NCBI RefSeq assembly: GCF_053078305.1
Contig: NZ_CP166879.1
DNA: 64,000 nt
Reading direction: 5' to 3' (one strand)
Shown here: positions 43,738-52,541 of the stretch, one piece after another
How the letters are laid out: each line of letters begins with the position of its first letter
How positions within the stretch are numbered: the stretch's first letter is position 1
Notes under the pieces: model-generated
Database searches by the model: none
What the model saw: only the letters and a program-made list of their open reading frames with translations
Told to the model about the DNA's origin: nothing
Translations under genes and position numbers: made by a program

Positions 43738-43877
43738 TTTTGCCTCCTTTCGCGCCACAAGAAATTAACTGTAGCGGGAAAGGATGGGTTTGGCTATGTG
43801 GCAATAAGGGTAATCTTGTGATGCTGATTGCGAAAAAGCAGAGTAATTTCACTGGCTTTTTCGCAATAGATGAATGG

Positions 43878-44765
43878 TTAAGATTCAGGTGTAAATTGCC
43901 AACGAGTTTCGATAACCAGCGGCCTATCTGGTGTCACCAATTCCGGCGTTAGATTTATTGCGTTAGGTGCCTGAGTCAGCGGGTTAATACAGGTGGCATC
44001 GGGCTGTTTATCAAATACCACCAGACTGTTTGCAGAAGAGATCATGGTCATCGCGAGTTTACCAGGCCACAGTAACTTAACCTTCACCCCGTCATAAAAA
44101 CCAAAACAGTCATCCCAGGGACCGACTTGAGGAGAGATGCGATTTCCAGTTGGCAGTTCATCACTACCCGCTTCTTCTTGCCAGTCCGCATCAAAAAGCA
44201 CCTGCAACGATTCTGTATTTTGCGGAGTCAGCTTTTTCGCAAACCACGGATGCCAGCCTGCGGAGGCCGGGAATGTATCGGCATATGAATGGACTTCCAG
44301 TTGCAAAACCAGCGCATCGTTCTCCAGCAAAAAAGTCTGAATCACTTCCCCTTGCCAAGGCCACGGTGAAGCCAGGGGCATACGTAAAGTCAGGGAATCT
44401 GCTGTTTTGTCGATGATTTCCCACGTTGAGTAACAAGCCATACCATGCAACGCATGTGGTGGTTTATTGGCGGGTAAAGAATAACATTGCCCACCAGCAT
44501 TCAGCGTCGCATTCCCCAGTCGCCCTGCCCACGGCACCATTGGGAAACAGCCATACTGAAAAGCTCTACGCTGCGGCTGCCATTGGCGTAATACTTCAGA
44601 ACCAAATGCCTTTAACGAGGTTATCCTGGCACCATCATGCGGATAAATCTGCAGGTGAATATTGCCTTTTTCCAGCGTCACTAACTCTCCTACAGGCCCA
44701 GGCCATGGCGCGTCAAACGCCTGTTGTAGCGCCAGGTAATGCTCGTTTTTTCGTTCAGTTTTCAT
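43878..44765 (-). CDS. Aldose 1-epimerase (mutarotase)-like protein
   Basis: YihR-like fold-level features; start uncertain: ATG at 44765 gives 295 aa with a 7-nt gap after the upstream stop, ATG at 44810 gives 310 aa with overlap. Confidence 0.6.
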   Translation of the reverse strand: MKTERKNEHYLALQQAFDAPWPGPVGELVTLEKGNIHLQIYPHDGARITSLKAFGSEVLRQWQPQRRAFQYGCFPMVPWAGRLGNATLNAGGQCYSLPANKPPHALHGMACYSTWEIIDKTADSLTLRMPLASPWPWQGEVIQTFLLENDALVLQLEVHSYADTFPASAGWHPWFAKKLTPQNTESLQVLFDADWQEEAGSDELPTGNRISPQVGPWDDCFGFYDGVKVKLLWPGKLAMTMISSANSLVVFDKQPDATCINPLTQAPNAINLTPELVTPDRPLVIETRWQFTPES

Positions 44766-46104
44766 GAGATTGTTCCCTGATGTAGCGGTAAGAAGCGGTT
44801 TCTTGTTCATCGGTCGGCTCAATCAGCCAGACGCAAACAAAGGAAAGAACTGAGACAGCAAATAAAAACAGAGCGACATACCACGGTTTTCCTCCCCCTA
44901 GCGCCAGCAAACTTGAGGCGATAAGGGGGCTTAGTCCGCCAAGAATCGCGGAAAATTGATAAGCAAAAGAAAGGCCGGTATATCGTACTTTGGTACCGAA
45001 CATGCGGGTGAAAAGTGTTGGCTGCACGGCAAACATCATCGTCGGACCTAAGTTGTAGCCGAGGATCATACTGCACCAGATGATGAGCGTACTTTTGCTA
45101 TCCAGTAATAAGAAGAAAGGAAACGCGAACAGGACACAAAATCCTGCTCCCGACAAATACAGACTTTTTTGACCTATACGATCTGATAACCATCCAACCA
45201 ATGGACAACTGAAAATACCGATCGCCGAGGCAATCAACATACCCGTCAGGGGAATATCTCGCGATAATGCTAATTGGCTGGAAATATAGACAATACCAAA
45301 GGCGTTAATAATATTAGAGGAGACACTTTCCGCCAGCCTCGCACCCAGTGCCAATAAAATATTTCGTGGATGTTTTTTGAATAATTCAATCAACGGAGGA
45401 ACGGACTTTTCTTTATTATTCGTCGTTTTTTGCTTTTGAAAATCCAGCGTTTCTTCGGTATGCAGGCGGATAAACAGCCCAACGATCAACATCACCGCAG
45501 AAAGCCAAAACGGAATGCGCCATCCCCAGGAGAGAAACTGCTCCGAAGTAAGAAAATGGTTACAGAGAGCAAAAATACCGGTTGCCAGCATAATACCCAC
45601 AGACGCAGCCGTTTGCGGGAGTGAACCTAAGAATCCGCGTCGGGATTCGGGCGCTGATTCTATGGTCATCAATGCCGCTCCACCGTACTCGCCACCAAGA
45701 CCAAAGCCCTGAATCAAACGCAGCACCATTAATACAAGCGGTGCCCAAATGCCAATTTCCTGATACGTCGGAATAAAACCAATCAAAAATGTGGAGCAAC
45801 CGACAATAGCCAGCGTCCAGATAAGTGTTATTTTTCGCCCGATTTTATCGCCAAAATGACCAAAGACGATGCCCCCTAAAGGACGAGTCAGAAAACCGAC
45901 ACCAAAGGTCGCAAAGGAAGCTATAAGACCTATAAAAGGATCGCTGTCTGGATAAAACAGCGGTGCAAATACCAGTCCTGCTGCCGTGCCAAAAATAAAG
46001 AAGTCATACCATTCCATTAACGCGCCTGCGAAACTGCCCATAACGACACGTCTCATGGCTTTACCGGAAAGCCCTTCACGCGGTGCGGGTAACTTTTCAG
46101 ACAT
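44755..46104 (-). CDS. MFS transporter, metabolite:H+ symporter (MHS, ProP/KgtP-like) family
   Basis: 449-aa polytopic ORF with GHFGDKIGRK MHS signature; AGGAGAGG Shine-Dalgarno; not a GPH-family YihO/YihP-type sequence. Confidence 0.75.
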   Translation of the reverse strand: MSEKLPAPREGLSGKAMRRVVMGSFAGALMEWYDFFIFGTAAGLVFAPLFYPDSDPFIGLIASFATFGVGFLTRPLGGIVFGHFGDKIGRKITLIWTLAIVGCSTFLIGFIPTYQEIGIWAPLVLMVLRLIQGFGLGGEYGGAALMTIESAPESRRGFLGSLPQTAASVGIMLATGIFALCNHFLTSEQFLSWGWRIPFWLSAVMLIVGLFIRLHTEETLDFQKQKTTNNKEKSVPPLIELFKKHPRNILLALGARLAESVSSNIINAFGIVYISSQLALSRDIPLTGMLIASAIGIFSCPLVGWLSDRIGQKSLYLSGAGFCVLFAFPFFLLLDSKSTLIIWCSMILGYNLGPTMMFAVQPTLFTRMFGTKVRYTGLSFAYQFSAILGGLSPLIASSLLALGGGKPWYVALFLFAVSVLSFVCVWLIEPTDEQETASYRYIREQSHEN

Positions 46105-46167
46105 AATTTTCCTCTCCTGGTAGGCGAGAAATCTGGGATACGAACCACTAAACGTGGGCAGTTTGAA

Positions 46168-46201
46168 TTAATGCGCATCGGCTTAAGCCGATGCGCATTA
46201 A
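46168..46201. other. Perfect 34-bp palindrome abutting the MFS gene stop
   Basis: ttaatgcgcatcggctt/aagccgatgcgcattaa is exactly self-complementary; no U-run follows on the minus strand. Confidence 0.6.
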
Positions 46202-46202
46202 A

Positions 46203-50711: not shown

Positions 50712-51608
50712 ATGACCAGAATTGCATGCGTGGGTATCACAGTTCAGGACAGGATTTATTCTTTGCCCACTCTGCCGGAGGGCGGCGGGAAATATCAGGC
50801 AAATCATTATCTTGAGATTGGTGGCGGCCCGGCAGCAACAGCCGCTGTTGCAATCGCAAGGCTTGGCGTGGAAGTTGATTTCATCGGTCGCGTCGGCGAT
50901 GACAGTTGTGGAAATACCTTACTTGCAGAACTTGAGGGTTGGGGCGTCAATACAGCATTTTGCCGCCGATATCCTAACGCCCGTTCGTCGCAATCAGCGA
51001 TCCTCGTTGATCAGCATGGCGAACGGATTATCGTTAATTATCCAAGTCCTGATCTCGGTACTGATGCCGAATGGTTAGAAGCGATCGATTTCTCTCGTTA
51101 TGATCTGATTCTGGCCGATGTTCGCTGGCATAGCGGTACTGAAAAAGCATTCTCGCTAGCGCGCCTTGCGGGTGTGACAACGCTTTTAGACGCCGATATG
51201 ACACCGCAGGATATTTCTCCACTTGTCGCGCTTGCCGATCACGCCGTGTTCTCAACGCCAGGGCTGAAACGCATGACTGGCCTGCAGTCACCTGAAGAAG
51301 GTTTGTTCCAGGCAACGACACAAACAGCAGGTAAAGTGTATGTTACGCTGGGTTCTGAAGGATCGTTGTGGATTGAAGATGGTCATTTGTGTCAACAGGA
51401 GGCATTTTCTGTCAATGTGGTTGATACCACTGGAGCAGGCGATGTTTTTCACGGCGCACTCGCGGTAGCGTTGGCAGAAAAAATGCCAACAAAAGAGGCT
51501 ATTCGTTTTGCCAGTGCGGTTGCCGCGATGAAATGTACCCAGCCTGGCGGTCGGGCCGGCATTCCTAATCGTGAGCAAACCGAATCATTTTTGTCACTTT
51601 ATGCGTAA
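50712..51608 (+). CDS. yihV: pfkB-family sugar kinase (YihV-like sulfofructose kinase family)
   Basis: 298 aa from [24 protein letters not shown] ribokinase-family motif. Confidence 0.8.
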
Positions 51609-51647
51609 AATGGTAAACATCTACCGAGGAGGGGCAAGGGAGTATTC

Positions 51648-52436
51648 ATGAGTATCATCGAAGTGACAGGTAATCCACGCCATGACCAACTCGTTCATCT
51701 AATCGCAGAACGCGGTTATATGAATATTGAAGAACTGGCACAACTGCTGGATGTTTCAACGCAAACCGTGCGCCGGGATATCCGAAAACTCAGTGAGCAG
51801 GGCTTGATCACCCGTCATCATGGAGGGGCCGGGCGCGTCTCCAGCGTCATGAATACCGCTTTTGAGCAACGGGAACTTTCGCTCACCGCCGAGAAACGGG
51901 CGATCGCTGAGGCAGTCGCCGATTACCTTCCCGAACGCTGTACCGTCTTTATCACCATCGGTACAACCGTAGAAGCCGTTGCCAGGGCATTACTCAACCG
52001 GCGTGATTTACGCATTATCACTAACAGCCTACGTGTGGCACAGATTCTTTATAAGAATCAGGATATTGAAGTGATGGTGCCGGGAGGCACTTTACGCGCT
52101 CATAACGGCGGGATTATCGGCCCAGGAGCCGTGGATTTTATTGAAGGCTTCCGCGCAGATTATTTAATCACCAGTATAGGTGCCATTGAACATGACGGCA
52201 CCCTACTGGAATTTGATGTAAATGAAGCGTTAGTCGCGAGAACGATGATTAAACATGCGCGGAATACATTGTTAGTGGCCGATCATACGAAGTTTGCCGC
52301 GTCTGCTGCCGTTTCAATTGGCAATGCACGGAATGTCAGGGCTTTTTTTACTGATGCCCCGCCTCCCAATTCTTTCTGCCAGTTGTTAAGTGAAGAGAAT
52401 GTTGAACTGGTGGTTGCCGAGCAGGAAGTTTCCTGA
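51648..52436 (+). CDS. yihW: DeoR-family transcriptional regulator (YihW/CsqR-like)
   Basis: 261-aa ORF; N-terminal HTH, C-terminal DeoR sugar-binding domain. Confidence 0.8.
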   Translation: MSIIEVTGNPRHDQLVHLIAERGYMNIEELAQLLDVSTQTVRRDIRKLSEQGLITRHHGGAGRVSSVMNTAFEQRELSLTAEKRAIAEAVADYLPERCTVFITIGTTVEAVARALLNRRDLRIITNSLRVAQILYKNQDIEVMVPGGTLRAHNGGIIGPGAVDFIEGFRADYLITSIGAIEHDGTLLEFDVNEALVARTMIKHARNTLLVADHTKFAASAAVSIGNARNVRAFFTDAPPPNSFCQLLSEENVELVVAEQEVS

Positions 52437-52452
52437 AATTGAAACTTCGAAA

Positions 52453-52483
52453 AATCCGCTGGGGATTCAGCGGATTTTATTTT
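52453..52483 (+). terminator. Intrinsic terminator after yihW
   Basis: Hairpin aatccgctg-gggattc-agcggatt followed by tttatttt. Confidence 0.65.
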
Positions 52484-52541
52484 GCCGGATGCGGCCTACG
52501 GTTGATACGGTTTTCGTTGGCCGGATTAAGCACATCCGGCC
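52484..52541. repeat. REP element
   Basis: gccggatgcggcctac ... ggccggattaagcacatccggcc. Confidence 0.75.

Follow-up and report, generated by a model that had tools for sequence, protein, structure and literature searches.

In Escherichia coli K-12, the yih locus lies between yihX and yihN. Read in the orientation used here, its order is yihX(-) csqR(-) yihV(-) yihU(+) yihT yihS yihR yihQ yihP yihO ompL(+) yihN(-). A second form is already known from the literature: strain Nissle 1917 carries a "short yihTUVW cassette" that sulfoquinovose does not induce (PMC12608037). It was described as truncated and transcriptionally silent on sulfoquinovose. Nissle lacks yihS, yihQ, yihR, yihO and yihP genome-wide and grows on sulfoquinovose as slowly as K-12 without induction of the cassette; no cassette gene was listed as differentially expressed on this sugar. 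Growth of both strains was poor and absolute expression values were not reported (PMC12608037). Growth without induction could mean that the cassette is irrelevant to sulfoquinovose; equally, it could mean that the cassette is constitutively expressed and used. The other four genes of the cassette are absent from the discussion in PMC12608037. We add to the published dimorphism the conservation of sulfonate-pocket residues and 16 loci outside E. coli, one of them beside sulfolactate and DHPS genes.

The window, that is, the whole stretch of 64,000 nucleotides analysed, comes from an E. coli strain and contains an eight-gene cassette of 8.7 kb (43804-52483) with yihX on one side and yihN on the other (Table 1). 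The block codes for a DeoR regulator, a PfkB kinase, a HIBADH reductase, a class I aldolase, a Zn-dependent dehydrogenase, two MFS transporters and a mutarotase-like protein. An earlier note on this DNA had delimited it as 43800-52540, which is right to within about 60 bases. The cassette was present in 1325 of 5426 complete E. coli genomes and the K-12 form in 3880. All eight genes are intact in strains PS10-3 and 4/0; in an O145 strain, the kinase and regulator genes remain as fragments only.

Table 1. Features of the cassette and its flanks, in window coordinates
Feature	Position	Strand	Remark
yihX (glucose-1-phosphatase)	43138..43737	-	Left flank, outside cassette; 98.5% aa identity to K-12 YihX
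Cassette-specific left-junction spacer	43804..43877	.	K-12 alignment ends at column 104
Mutarotase-like (aldose-1-epimerase-like), 295 aa	43878..44765	-	RefSeq annotation in PS10-3; final gene of the long operon
MHS-type MFS transporter, 449 aa	44755..46104	-	NCBIfam profile scores
Perfect palindrome, 15-bp stem	46168..46201	.	Inside the 98-bp spacer separating both transporter genes
Second MFS transporter, 477 aa	46203..47636	-	Sugar_tr/MFS_1 fold
Zn-dependent dehydrogenase, polyol/aldonate type, 336 aa if intact	47706..48716	-	Pseudogene in window (translation)
Class I aldolase, YihT (sulfofructose-1-phosphate aldolase) family, 295 aa	48749..49636	-	Identity, PDB matches
YihU-like sulfolactaldehyde reductase (HIBADH family), 292 aa	49661..50539	-	First gene of the long operon
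Divergent promoter/operator region	50540..50711	.	Between reductase and kinase genes; boxes common with K-12
YihV-like sulfofructose kinase (PfkB family), 298 aa	50712..51608	+	Identity, pocket residues
DeoR-family repressor, YihW/CsqR homologue, 262 aa	51648..52436	+	71.5% identity to CsqR
Hairpin and T run	52451..52483	+	Last cassette-specific DNA (sequence read directly)
REP-type element, right junction	52484..52546	.	K-12 identity resumes here
yihN	52547..53812	-	Right flank, conserved; 99.3% identical to K-12 YihN

DNA homology to K-12 ends at about 43803/43804 on the left and resumes at about 52484 on the right, within the REP element. The cassette runs opposite to that of K-12: the regulator/kinase pair adjoins yihN, whereas it adjoins yihX in K-12. 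A Zn-dehydrogenase gene is located where K-12 has the sugar isomerase, and blastp found no counterparts of yihS, yihQ, yihP, yihO and ompL in the block. The earlier note had read all of this correctly: the K-12-like flanks, the reversed kinase/DeoR pair abutting yihN, the absent genes and the Zn-dehydrogenase, MFS porter, MHS transporter and mutarotase-like gene in their place. It took the block to be the K-12 locus inverted and partly replaced. A simple inversion followed by partial deletion and insertion is also the reading in the discussion of PMC12608037 (2025), and the reversal of the U/V/W/T module between the same flanks and the right junction within a REP element agree with it. The reversed orientation is real, but the genes are not rearranged K-12 genes. 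For the proteins common to both forms, identity to K-12 YihT/U/V/W is only 67-72%, whereas the flanks reach 98.5-99.3%, and Megablast detected no K-12 similarity within the block. The aldolase is nearer to that of a Rhodopseudomonas cassette (74%) than to K-12 YihT (67%). The block is therefore a distinct alternative cassette. In Citrobacter, this cassette occupies the same site, and its synonymous divergence resembles that of the flanks, which points to two old alleles exchanged via flank recombination. An inversion of the K-12 block is thus highly improbable. The block is one of two alternative cassettes at the E. coli yihX-yihN site, a discrete structural polymorphism.

The sulfonate-binding and catalytic residues of the K-12 enzymes were defined by crystal structures (PMC8006165). 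The cassette kinase shares 67.7% identical amino acids with YihV and keeps the sulfonate triad K27/N109/R138, the catalytic D244 and the sugar-binding D13/S95/D162. The aldolase (66.7% identity to K-12 YihT) keeps the Schiff-base lysine and the pocket residues A26/K193/S226/S227/R253; in the PDB, it matches the sulfofructosephosphate aldolases 7AG1 and 7AG7 best (E = 3e-124). The reductase (72.3% identity to YihU) keeps R123/N174/S178 and matches the NCBIfam equivalog NF012005, sulfolactaldehyde reductase, with 576 bits (cut-off 348). With all published sulfonate-pocket residues kept in the three enzymes, the sequences support retention of the sulfofructose kinase, aldolase and reductase steps. 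The suggestion that a different substrate enters a similar phosphorylate–cleave–reduce route holds in so far as the core is kept and the entry differs. This is supported by the pocket residues, by the conservation of the cassette across phyla and by the missing sulfoquinovose induction in Nissle 1917 (PMC12608037). Rather than a generic carbohydrate, the substrate is probably still a sulfosugar.

Loci with this gene set are spread over Alpha-, Beta- and Gammaproteobacteria and Actinobacteria. In each of the 16 loci outside E. coli, the genes for the Zn-dehydrogenase and an aldolase are adjacent, with one intervening gene in Jejubacter. The loci belong to Citrobacter (two), Enterobacter, Erwinia, Edaphovirga, Budvicia, Jejubacter, Vibrio, Sutterella, Rhodopseudomonas, Pleomorphomonas, Streptomyces, Prauserella, a Propionibacteriaceae MAG and two metagenome contigs. 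A PfkB kinase gene is nearby in all 14 loci whose contig reaches far enough. The aldolase is of class I in 12 loci and of class II in four. The best PDB matches of the class II enzymes are HpSqiA and YaSqiA (E = 1.7e-108), both proven class II sulfofructose-phosphate aldolases. An aldehyde dehydrogenase replaces the reductase in two loci; this alternation is already known for the fate of sulfolactaldehyde. At locus L092, the trio is located beside SuyAB-like, sulfolactate-dehydrogenase-like and SsuD-like genes, and an HpsG DHPS glycyl-radical enzyme (1517 bits, cut-off 1000) is encoded about 5 kb away. Homologues of YihS, YihQ, YihO, YihP and OmpL were detected neither within 10 kb in 12 loci (tblastn) nor in the lists of Pfam-assigned genes for the remaining four. 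In the enterobacterial and Vibrio loci, the kinase and the reductase keep all sulfonate-pocket residues. Their Rhodopseudomonas and Streptomyces counterparts are only 28-34% identical to YihV/YihU and lack the K27/N109/R138 triad and N174/S178, so a sulfonate specificity there is indicated by the aldolase alone. The Pleomorphomonas pair is equally distant (30-31%).

The Zn-dehydrogenase belongs to the medium-chain family; among solved structures, RspB, a ketose reductase and the threonine and sorbitol dehydrogenases come closest to it. Across 14 orthologues, the zinc ligands C42/H64/E65/E149, the four cysteines C94/C97/C100/C108 of the structural zinc site and the GxGxxG motif do not vary. E197, which lines up with the position behind strand beta-2 that discriminates between cofactors, is nearly invariant. 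We infer NAD preference and the direction of the reaction from these sequences. In the window, codon 65 reads TAA instead of GAA owing to a C-to-A substitution at 48524 (+ strand), which creates a stop at 48522-48524. The residue lost is Glu65 of the GHE zinc-ligand motif, and the mutation should block entry into the pathway in this strain. The earlier note had rightly called the gene disrupted; the cause is this nonsense codon. A frameshift is ruled out, as it is a single substitution without indel relative to PS10-3; the two genes differ by two substitutions and nothing else. The exact 61-mer with the stop occurs in none of the 5426 complete E. coli genomes, and 443 match with one mismatch. 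The stop is thus either a private mutation of this strain or an error in sequencing.

The stop codon, the fragments in the O145 strain and the publication of the form as truncated and silent on sulfoquinovose (PMC12608037) could be taken to indicate a decaying remnant of the K-12 cassette without catabolic role and with four unrelated passenger genes. Conservation data largely refute this reading, which we consider extremely unlikely. The stop is private, all eight genes are intact elsewhere and the block is carried by more than a thousand genomes. Shared genes with about 30% divergence are no recent derivatives of those of K-12. The four supposed passengers are the best conserved genes of the cassette across phyla (64-74% identity). 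A comparison of E. coli with Citrobacter gave dN/dS values of 0.015-0.087 for the seven calculable genes, with the minimum for the Zn-dehydrogenase; the DeoR gene was left out due to saturated dS. Judged by its recurrence outside E. coli, the cassette behaves as a selected unit.

[quoted passage not shown] The Zn-dehydrogenase in the place of the isomerase points to an undescribed entry into sulfosugar breakdown. A free sulfonated sugar or sugar alcohol may be imported by one of the two MFS transporters. The NAD-dependent, polyol-type dehydrogenase would then yield 6-deoxy-6-sulfofructose from a candidate substrate, most simply by C2 oxidation of a 6-deoxy-6-sulfo-hexitol. This would be the sulfonate counterpart of L-gulonate 5-dehydrogenase, which makes fructuronate. 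The mutarotase-like protein may speed ring and anomer equilibration. Supported by their conserved pocket residues, the YihV-like kinase would form sulfofructose-1-phosphate, the YihT-like aldolase would cleave it into DHAP and sulfolactaldehyde, and the YihU-like reductase would produce DHPS, which may leave through the second transporter. With a hexitol, the NADH from the dehydrogenase would be used by the reductase, making the upper pathway redox-neutral. No 6-deoxy-6-sulfo-hexitol is known to occur naturally, and searching the literature by name gave no match. The presence of a mutarotase also speaks against an open-chain alditol and points to a sugar in hemiacetal form.

Sulfoquinovose itself may be the substrate, with the dehydrogenase converting the aldose to the ketose by redox chemistry. 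The enzyme alone could oxidise C2 and then reduce C1 with the bound cofactor, or a housekeeping aldose reductase could form sulfo-glucitol, to be oxidised to sulfofructose. Constitutive expression in Nissle would explain the missing induction. Nissle, lacking yihS/Q/R/O/P, grows on sulfoquinovose like K-12, and its YihW binds weakly at 37°C and responds to sulfoquinovose in vitro (PMC12608037). The downstream enzymes all look sulfofructose-specific, and most loci have a mutarotase-like gene. However, this growth was poor in both strains, with absolute expression values unreported, and none of the 16 loci has a dedicated aldose reductase. The cassette never occurs together with a sulfoquinovosidase, which is unusual among sulfoquinovose clusters. 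We know of no precedent for redox isomerisation by a single medium-chain dehydrogenase, and this also counts against sulfoquinovose, which we regard as a possible but unlikely substrate.

An anionic sugar without sulfonate group, such as L-gulonate or a different aldonate, is improbable as the substrate. The dehydrogenase would form a 2-keto-uronate; phosphorylation at C1 and cleavage into DHAP and tartronate semialdehyde would follow, and the reductase would produce glycerate. The relationship to RspB-type enzymes fits, as does the JGI annotation of three orthologues as L-gulonate 5-dehydrogenase, made automatically. Carboxylates are the usual cargo of MHS-family transporters, the ydj cluster of E. 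coli is laid out similarly for sugars with a carboxylate end, and the Rhodopseudomonas and Streptomyces kinases and reductases lack the sulfonate residues. Against an aldonate stand the complete sulfonate pockets of the enterobacterial and Vibrio enzymes, the closeness of both aldolase types to proven sulfofructose-phosphate aldolases, the sulfolactate and DHPS genes around L092, the in vitro response of the regulator to sulfoquinovose (PMC12608037) and the lack of a glycerate kinase gene in any of the clusters.

The MHS (metabolite:H+ symporter) transporter scores 407 bits with TIGR00883 and 410 bits with the ShiA model, each below its NCBIfam cut-off, and is 56-87% identical across the loci outside E. 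coli that carry one. It probably moves an organic anion, in sulfosugar import or DHPS export. The second MFS transporter has only weak NCBIfam matches and no close characterised relative. In 14 of the 16 loci (exceptions L018 and L092), its gene immediately follows that of the Zn-dehydrogenase, with 64-91% identity where measured. The mutarotase-like protein is 26.8% identical to YihR over 164 aa only and reaches 34 bits with the NCBIfam YihR model (cut-off 251). In the PDB, it matches the aldose 1-epimerase 3NRE best, and orthologues with 46-73% identity are present in 11 of the 16 loci.

Both divergent operons would be under control of the DeoR repressor, with an operator common with K-12. 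The reductase/kinase intergenic region and the K-12 yihU/yihV region have boxes in common, for example AATTACAAATA and TCAAAA[AC]C. In band shifts, Nissle YihW and K-12 CsqR each bound the Nissle yihU/V region, and Nissle YihW also bound the K-12 fragment (PMC12608037). Sulfoquinovose released Nissle YihW from its operator in vitro, with a weaker response than that of K-12 CsqR; at 37°C, its DNA binding was weak (PMC12608037). A simple scan found no sigma-70 site in this intergenic region. The hairpin behind the regulator gene consists of the arms AAAATCCGCTG and CAGCGGATTTT around the loop GGGATT, followed by ATTTT, and is likely the terminator of the kinase-regulator operon. It is absent from the list of the simple scan. 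In the left spacer, a 12-bp inverted repeat, TTGCGAAAAAGC (43828-43839) and GCTTTTTCGCAA (43855-43866), may terminate the long operon.

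The gene order follows from the ORFs of the window together with the RefSeq annotation of E. coli PS10-3, the closest complete genome (99.7% identity to the window over 10.9 kb, zero indels). Identity with K-12 DNA stops at about 43803, some 66 bases upstream of the yihX start, and is back at about 52484 within a REP element. The cassette-specific DNA, 43804-52483, carries eight genes. In the same orientation, K-12 (DH5alpha record) has the order yihX(-) csqR(-) yihV(-) yihU(+) yihT yihS yihR yihQ yihP yihO ompL(+) yihN(-). Comparison of the two orders bore out the gene order, the orientation and the missing genes that an earlier note on this DNA had described.

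Genes of the cassette and its flanks, with protein identities to the K-12 form
Feature	Position	Strand	K-12 protein	Protein identity
yihX (flank, minus strand)			YihX	98.5%
Mutarotase-like gene	43878-44765	-	YihR	26.8% (about half the protein aligned)
MHS-family MFS transporter	44755-46104	-		
Second MFS transporter	46203-47636	-		
Zn-dehydrogenase	47706-48716	-		
Class I aldolase	48749-49636	-	YihT	66.7%
YihU-like reductase	49661-50539	-	YihU	72.3%
PfkB kinase	50712-51608	+	YihV	67.7%
DeoR regulator	51648-52436	+	CsqR (YihW)	71.5%
yihN (flank, minus strand)			YihN	99.3%

The reading of the block as inverted K-12 genes did not hold. A simple inversion is rejected by the 67-72% identity of the cassette proteins, compared with 98.5-99.3% for the flanks, and megablast found no K-12 similarity inside the block. 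The aldolase shares 71-75% identity with the cassette aldolases of Rhodopseudomonas and Pleomorphomonas; K-12 YihT is further off (67%). Two Citrobacter genomes have the same cassette, one of them between yihN and yihX, and the contig of the other has the end of the cassette adjoining yihX. Between E. coli and Citrobacter, synonymous sites are saturated, with similar divergence in cassette and flanks. From the Citrobacter cassette and this similar divergence, the K-12 form and the cassette look like alleles of long standing that alternate at a single site. Among 5426 complete E. coli genomes, 3880 have the K-12 form and 1325 this cassette (each at a coverage of at least 80%). A decaying remnant with passenger genes was considered and rejected on the E. 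coli-Citrobacter dN/dS values, which range from 0.015 to 0.087 in the seven calculable genes. The Zn-dehydrogenase is the most constrained.

Individual genomes show local changes, among them two derived haplotypes of the site in E. coli. In the UTI strain 4/0 (L004, 15437-15545), the full cassette is present and yihL, yihM and yihN are deleted, so that the regulator gene adjoins typA. Of the alternative cassette, E. coli O145 RM9154-C1 (L003, 4910-5313) has just kinase and regulator gene fragments left. In Citrobacter sp. R56, an insert of 3.4 kb separates the epimerase gene from yihX. Its sequence resembles that of a large surface protein or one of autotransporter type, apparently unconnected with the cassette.

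The dimorphism of the locus is already known. A 'long' (ompL-yihOPQRSTUVW) and a 'short' (yihTUVW) cassette alternate at one site, where they point in opposite directions, and both have a scattered distribution among the phylogroups (Kaznadzey et al. 2025, PMC12608037). The short form is overrepresented among pathogens, and Nissle 1917 is one of its carriers. It was not differentially expressed on sulfoquinovose, on which Nissle grew about as poorly as K-12, and the Nissle YihW showed weaker operator binding and less complete release by sulfoquinovose. The published survey found no isomerase elsewhere in short-cassette genomes (PMC12608037). The window has yihT/U/V/W homologues at the yih site, reversed and without yihO-S, as described for the short form, and the identity of YihW to CsqR is 71.5% here and 72% in the publication. 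It is the same cassette, with proteins 97-100% identical to those of the UTI isolate 4/0; its reversed orientation, position and scattered phylogenetic distribution are already contained in PMC12608037. The publication regards it as truncated to four genes and is silent on the adjoining Zn-dehydrogenase, two transporters and epimerase, as well as on the fact that the set of eight genes is conserved beyond E. coli. In its supplementary tables on differential expression, four Nissle genes are named just as homologues of K-12 genes, and tags fitting the other four are absent. Thus, the polymorphism is known and the eight-gene nature of the cassette apparently not described; an eight-gene cassette without isomerase, with a dehydrogenase and present across phyla appears to be undescribed in the literature searched. 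One puzzle from the 2025 publication is that Nissle can grow on sulfoquinovose although it has no known entry enzyme and does not induce the short cassette.

The divergent promoter region of the cassette (50540-50711) and that of the K-12 cassette (L005, 3709-3875) have the short invariant boxes AATTACAAATA, TCAAAA[AC]C and GTGA in common, despite a divergence of about 30% in the coding genes. The boxes are candidate operators for the YihW/CsqR regulators, and their presence in both regions fits the published cross-binding of both regulators. A sigma-70 promoter scan yielded 6 sites versus 10.7 in shuffled sequence and none in the divergent intergenic region, which makes the scan uninformative on promoters. 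Rfam gave no RNA families inside the cassette. The spacer between the two transporter genes contains a perfect 34-base palindrome (46168-46201; 15-bp stem, 4-base loop), which could be an RNA-stabilising hairpin, an attenuating hairpin or a protein-binding site.

The sulfonate pocket of the kinase was defined by crystal structures as K27/N109/R138, that of the aldolase comprises R253 with A26, next to the Schiff-base K193 and S226/S227, and that of the reductase N174/S178 and the R123 backbone (PMC8006165). The window kinase keeps K27/N109/R138 together with the sugar-binding D13/S95/D162 and the catalytic D244. The aldolase keeps A26, K193, S226/S227 and R253, and its best PDB matches are the sulfofructose-phosphate aldolases 7AG1 and 7AG7 (E = 3e-124). 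R123, N174 and S178 are present in the reductase, which is over the NCBIfam equivalog cut-off for sulfolactaldehyde reductase (576 versus 348 bits). By these residues and matches, the lower pathway is predicted to be still sulfonate-specific.

The known entry enzymes are missing. A YihS isomerase homologue was found neither in the window block (blastp) nor within 10 kb in 12 related loci (tblastn), and the isomerase Pfam families PF07221 (YihS) and PF02952 (SqvD) are absent from the Pfam tables of 8 related loci. No sulfoquinovosidase YihQ (GH31), a common though not invariable component of sulfoquinovose clusters, was found in the window block or the related loci. The mutarotase-like protein belongs to the YihR fold family (PF01263), with 34 bits in the YihR model (cut-off 251).

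The dehydrogenase is of the Zn-dependent medium-chain type and has the sequence features of the polyol/aldonate dehydrogenase clade. In 14 orthologues, the catalytic zinc ligands C42/H64/E65/E149, the structural-zinc lobe C94/C97/C100/C108 and the GxGxxG motif (G173/G175/G178) are invariant. Glu197 after strand beta-2, a position placed by alignment with an NADP-dependent ketose reductase, is nearly invariant in these orthologues and suggests the use of NAD rather than NADP. Among solved structures, RspB, ketose reductase and the dehydrogenases of threonine and sorbitol come closest. The protein is under all NCBIfam equivalog cut-offs; its top match PRK10083 ('Zn-dependent oxidoreductase'), a model that probably corresponds to YdjJ, reaches 165 bits with a cut-off of 376. 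Three orthologues bear the automatic JGI name L-gulonate 5-dehydrogenase.

A profile search with the dehydrogenase alignment was dominated by the generic family motif, and 9 of 80 among the matches listed were orthologues (at least 45% identity). Loci at 29-41% dehydrogenase identity were taken as paralogues and left out. Orthologues with 55-94% identity occur in Enterobacterales, Vibrio, Sutterella, Alphaproteobacteria, Streptomyces and a Propionibacteriaceae MAG, and Prauserella has a 45% relative. Sixteen loci outside E. coli were looked at. The dehydrogenase gene adjoins the aldolase gene in all of them (with one gene between in Jejubacter), and the gene of a 477-aa MFS protein directly follows the dehydrogenase in 14. 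A PfkB kinase gene was found wherever the contig reaches, and most loci have an MHS transporter and a mutarotase-like gene. Homologues of YihS, YihQ, YihO, YihP and OmpL were found in none of the 16 (tblastn within 10 kb in 12, Pfam lists in the rest).

Aldolase, dehydrogenase and the two transporters share 64-74% identity between E. coli and Rhodopseudomonas or Streptomyces, as do the aldolase, dehydrogenase and transporters of Pleomorphomonas (L017). The mutarotase-like protein is 52% identical between E. coli and Rhodopseudomonas and absent in Streptomyces. The kinase, reductase and DeoR regulator of the Rhodopseudomonas, Streptomyces and Pleomorphomonas loci (L006, L007 and L017) have just 24-34% identity to YihV/U/W, and the kinase and reductase of the first two are without the sulfonate residues. 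These slots are filled by non-orthologous proteins. Jejubacter and the metagenome contig L092 have an aldehyde dehydrogenase instead of the reductase, a replacement that corresponds to the other known fate of sulfolactaldehyde. In Vibrio, Budvicia, Jejubacter and the metagenome contig L093, a class II aldolase takes the place of class I. The best PDB matches of the Vibrio enzyme are HpSqiA (8Q58) and YaSqiA (8Q57) with E = 1.7e-108, followed by AgaY with 4e-72; HpSqiA and YaSqiA are the two proven class II sulfofructose-phosphate aldolases (PMC10665668). YdjI is also among the PDB matches of the class II aldolase. On L092 (JGI metagenome 3300026363, contig Ga0255363_100024, 770-18720), sulfonate-related genes precede the kinase-aldolase-dehydrogenase trio: an SsuD-like monooxygenase, an SAF and GD_AH pair (SuyAB type), the aldehyde dehydrogenase and an Ldh_2 protein with L-sulfolactate dehydrogenase as top NCBIfam match. 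About 5 kb downstream, a glycyl-radical enzyme exceeds the HpsG (DHPS) equivalog cut-off (1517 versus 1000 bits), and its activase is present. In gene content, L092 looks like a complete sulfosugar-to-sulfite island.

L-gulonate 5-dehydrogenase (KEGG K08322) transforms L-gulonate into D-fructuronate, that is, a hexitol-like chain with a terminal anion into a 2-ketose. It belongs to a polyol route from aldose to ketose, known from glucuronate via L-gulonate to fructuronate and from glucose via sorbitol to fructose. In a sulfonate counterpart, the cassette dehydrogenase would oxidise 6-deoxy-6-sulfo-D-glucitol to sulfofructose. With the NADH-dependent reductase downstream, such a single-oxidation route would be redox-neutral. 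In the two loci without the HIBADH-type reductase, the dehydrogenase is the sole candidate entry enzyme, which makes one oxidation to sulfofructose the simplest model. Isomerase-free sulfoglycolysis via a dehydrogenase is slightly favoured as the general mechanism. It falls somewhat short of an even chance that the Zn-dehydrogenase is an unrecognised entry into isomerase-free sulfoglycolysis which either oxidises an undescribed natural sulfonated hexitol or redox-isomerises sulfoquinovose. The hexitol as the specific substrate is rather doubtful. Its weak points are that such a hexitol is not known as a natural product and that the mutarotase fits a ring-forming sugar better than a hexitol, although the mutarotase could act on sulfofructose anomers because the kinase binds the furanose form (PMC8006165). 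Literature searches for a sulfo-hexitol as natural product gave no relevant match, and none was obtained for 'SQ reductase', 'sulfo-EMP3' and like terms. The main alternative is sulfoquinovose itself as the substrate, with constitutive expression of the Nissle cassette; this would account for the growth of Nissle without yihS. The cassette probably still handles a sulfosugar. The earlier note had proposed that another substrate enters a similar phosphorylate-cleave-reduce route. Of this interpretation, the gene content and the same core with a different entry stand, the inversion does not, and the cassette is best classed as a variant of sulfoglycolysis.

The sulfo-EMP cluster of E. coli K-12, ompL-yihOPQRSTUVW, was reportedly described by Denger et al. 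in 2014. It shares with the cassette the chromosomal site, homologous kinase, class I aldolase, reductase and DeoR proteins with all sulfonate-pocket residues, a similar divergent promoter with operator-like boxes in common, two MFS-superfamily transporters and a mutarotase-fold protein. In contrast to K-12, the cassette is in the opposite orientation, has no YihS isomerase, YihQ sulfoquinovosidase or OmpL porin, has an additional Zn-dehydrogenase and a mutarotase of 27% identity, and its common proteins are about 30% diverged. The K-12 transporters are GPH proteins, whereas those of the cassette are an MHS and an unclassified MFS protein, and the Nissle cassette is without sulfoquinovose induction. 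The ydjEFGHIJKL cluster of K-12 encodes a DeoR protein, the PfkB kinase YdjH, the class II aldolase YdjI, the Zn-dehydrogenases YdjJ and YdjL and two MFS transporters. It has a similar part set for an anionic sugar, from dehydrogenase to C1 kinase to aldolase, but its substrate class is carboxylate-ended and the proteins are distant paralogues alone. L-gulonate 5-dehydrogenase and RspB belong to the same Zn-dependent medium-chain clade as the cassette dehydrogenase, and the polyol route would, by analogy, share the oxidation of a polyol with a terminal anion near its far end to a 2-ketose. RspB and sorbitol dehydrogenases differ by their low identity to the cassette enzyme, whose proposed substrate is sulfonated. 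Hybrid sulfo-EMP1/2 clusters with SqiA (Sharma et al. 2023, PMC10665668) resemble the Vibrio, Budvicia, Jejubacter and L093 loci in the class II aldolase, and the alternation of sulfolactaldehyde reductase and dehydrogenase is common to both. They are defined by a sulfoquinovose isomerase, PF07221 or PF02952 (PMC10665668), whereas the cassette loci have neither and a Zn-dehydrogenase instead. The Zn-dehydrogenase variant is mentioned neither in a 2026 review nor in this 2023 cluster survey, in whose main text PF00107, PF08240 and 'alcohol dehydrogenase' do not occur (PMC10665668).

An isomerase-free route would, if true, be present in roughly one in four E. coli, Nissle 1917 and many extraintestinal pathogens among them, and also in gut, soil and water bacteria of the Proteobacteria and Actinobacteria. 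It would account for the growth on sulfoquinovose of strains without yihS. Sulfoquinovose is among the most abundant organosulfur compounds, and its breakdown in the gut provides hydrogen-sulfide producers with DHPS and sulfolactate. Surveys of the pathway at present detect sulfoglycolysis via sulfoquinovosidase and isomerase genes and would miss a cassette without either. They would pass over about 24% of E. coli genomes, among them the probiotic Nissle 1917 and many lineages of pathogens. The eight genes and the highly constrained dehydrogenase make the Nissle growth puzzle directly addressable by experiment, and the cassette may hint at an undescribed natural sulfonated sugar alcohol.

In the window, the dehydrogenase gene is interrupted. 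A frameshift was rejected, as only substitutions separate it from PS10-3 and the break is a nonsense codon: through a substitution at 48524, codon 65, for the Glu of the GHE zinc-ligand motif, reads TAA in place of GAA. The intact enzyme of PS10-3 is WP_000357967.1, and the Nissle gene is probably K8943_RS13585, judged by its place among neighbouring tags. A 61-mer around the stop has no exact match in the 5426 complete E. coli genomes; 443 genomes match with one mismatch. The stop codon is private to this strain or a sequencing error. A private stop is predicted to knock out the putative entry enzyme and to render the pathway inactive in this strain.

Elsewhere in the window, an intact 614-aa ORF (38623-40467, minus strand) lies in a stretch of 37-42% GC between yiiE and fabY. 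It has zero NCBIfam and zero significant Pfam matches. At this site, other E. coli have an annotated transposase and a partial hypothetical protein, and K-12 has a small remnant alone. Between rhaA and rhaD, a REP-type repeat array with a spacing of about 92 bases (20916-21311) contains the core GCCGGATGCGGC five times. Four copies match the Rfam family naRNA4, and a further naRNA4 match is located at 12046-12123. At about 22550-23940 (minus strand), between rhaM and frvA, the matching strain JX21CE8 carries a gene with the annotation carbohydrate porin.
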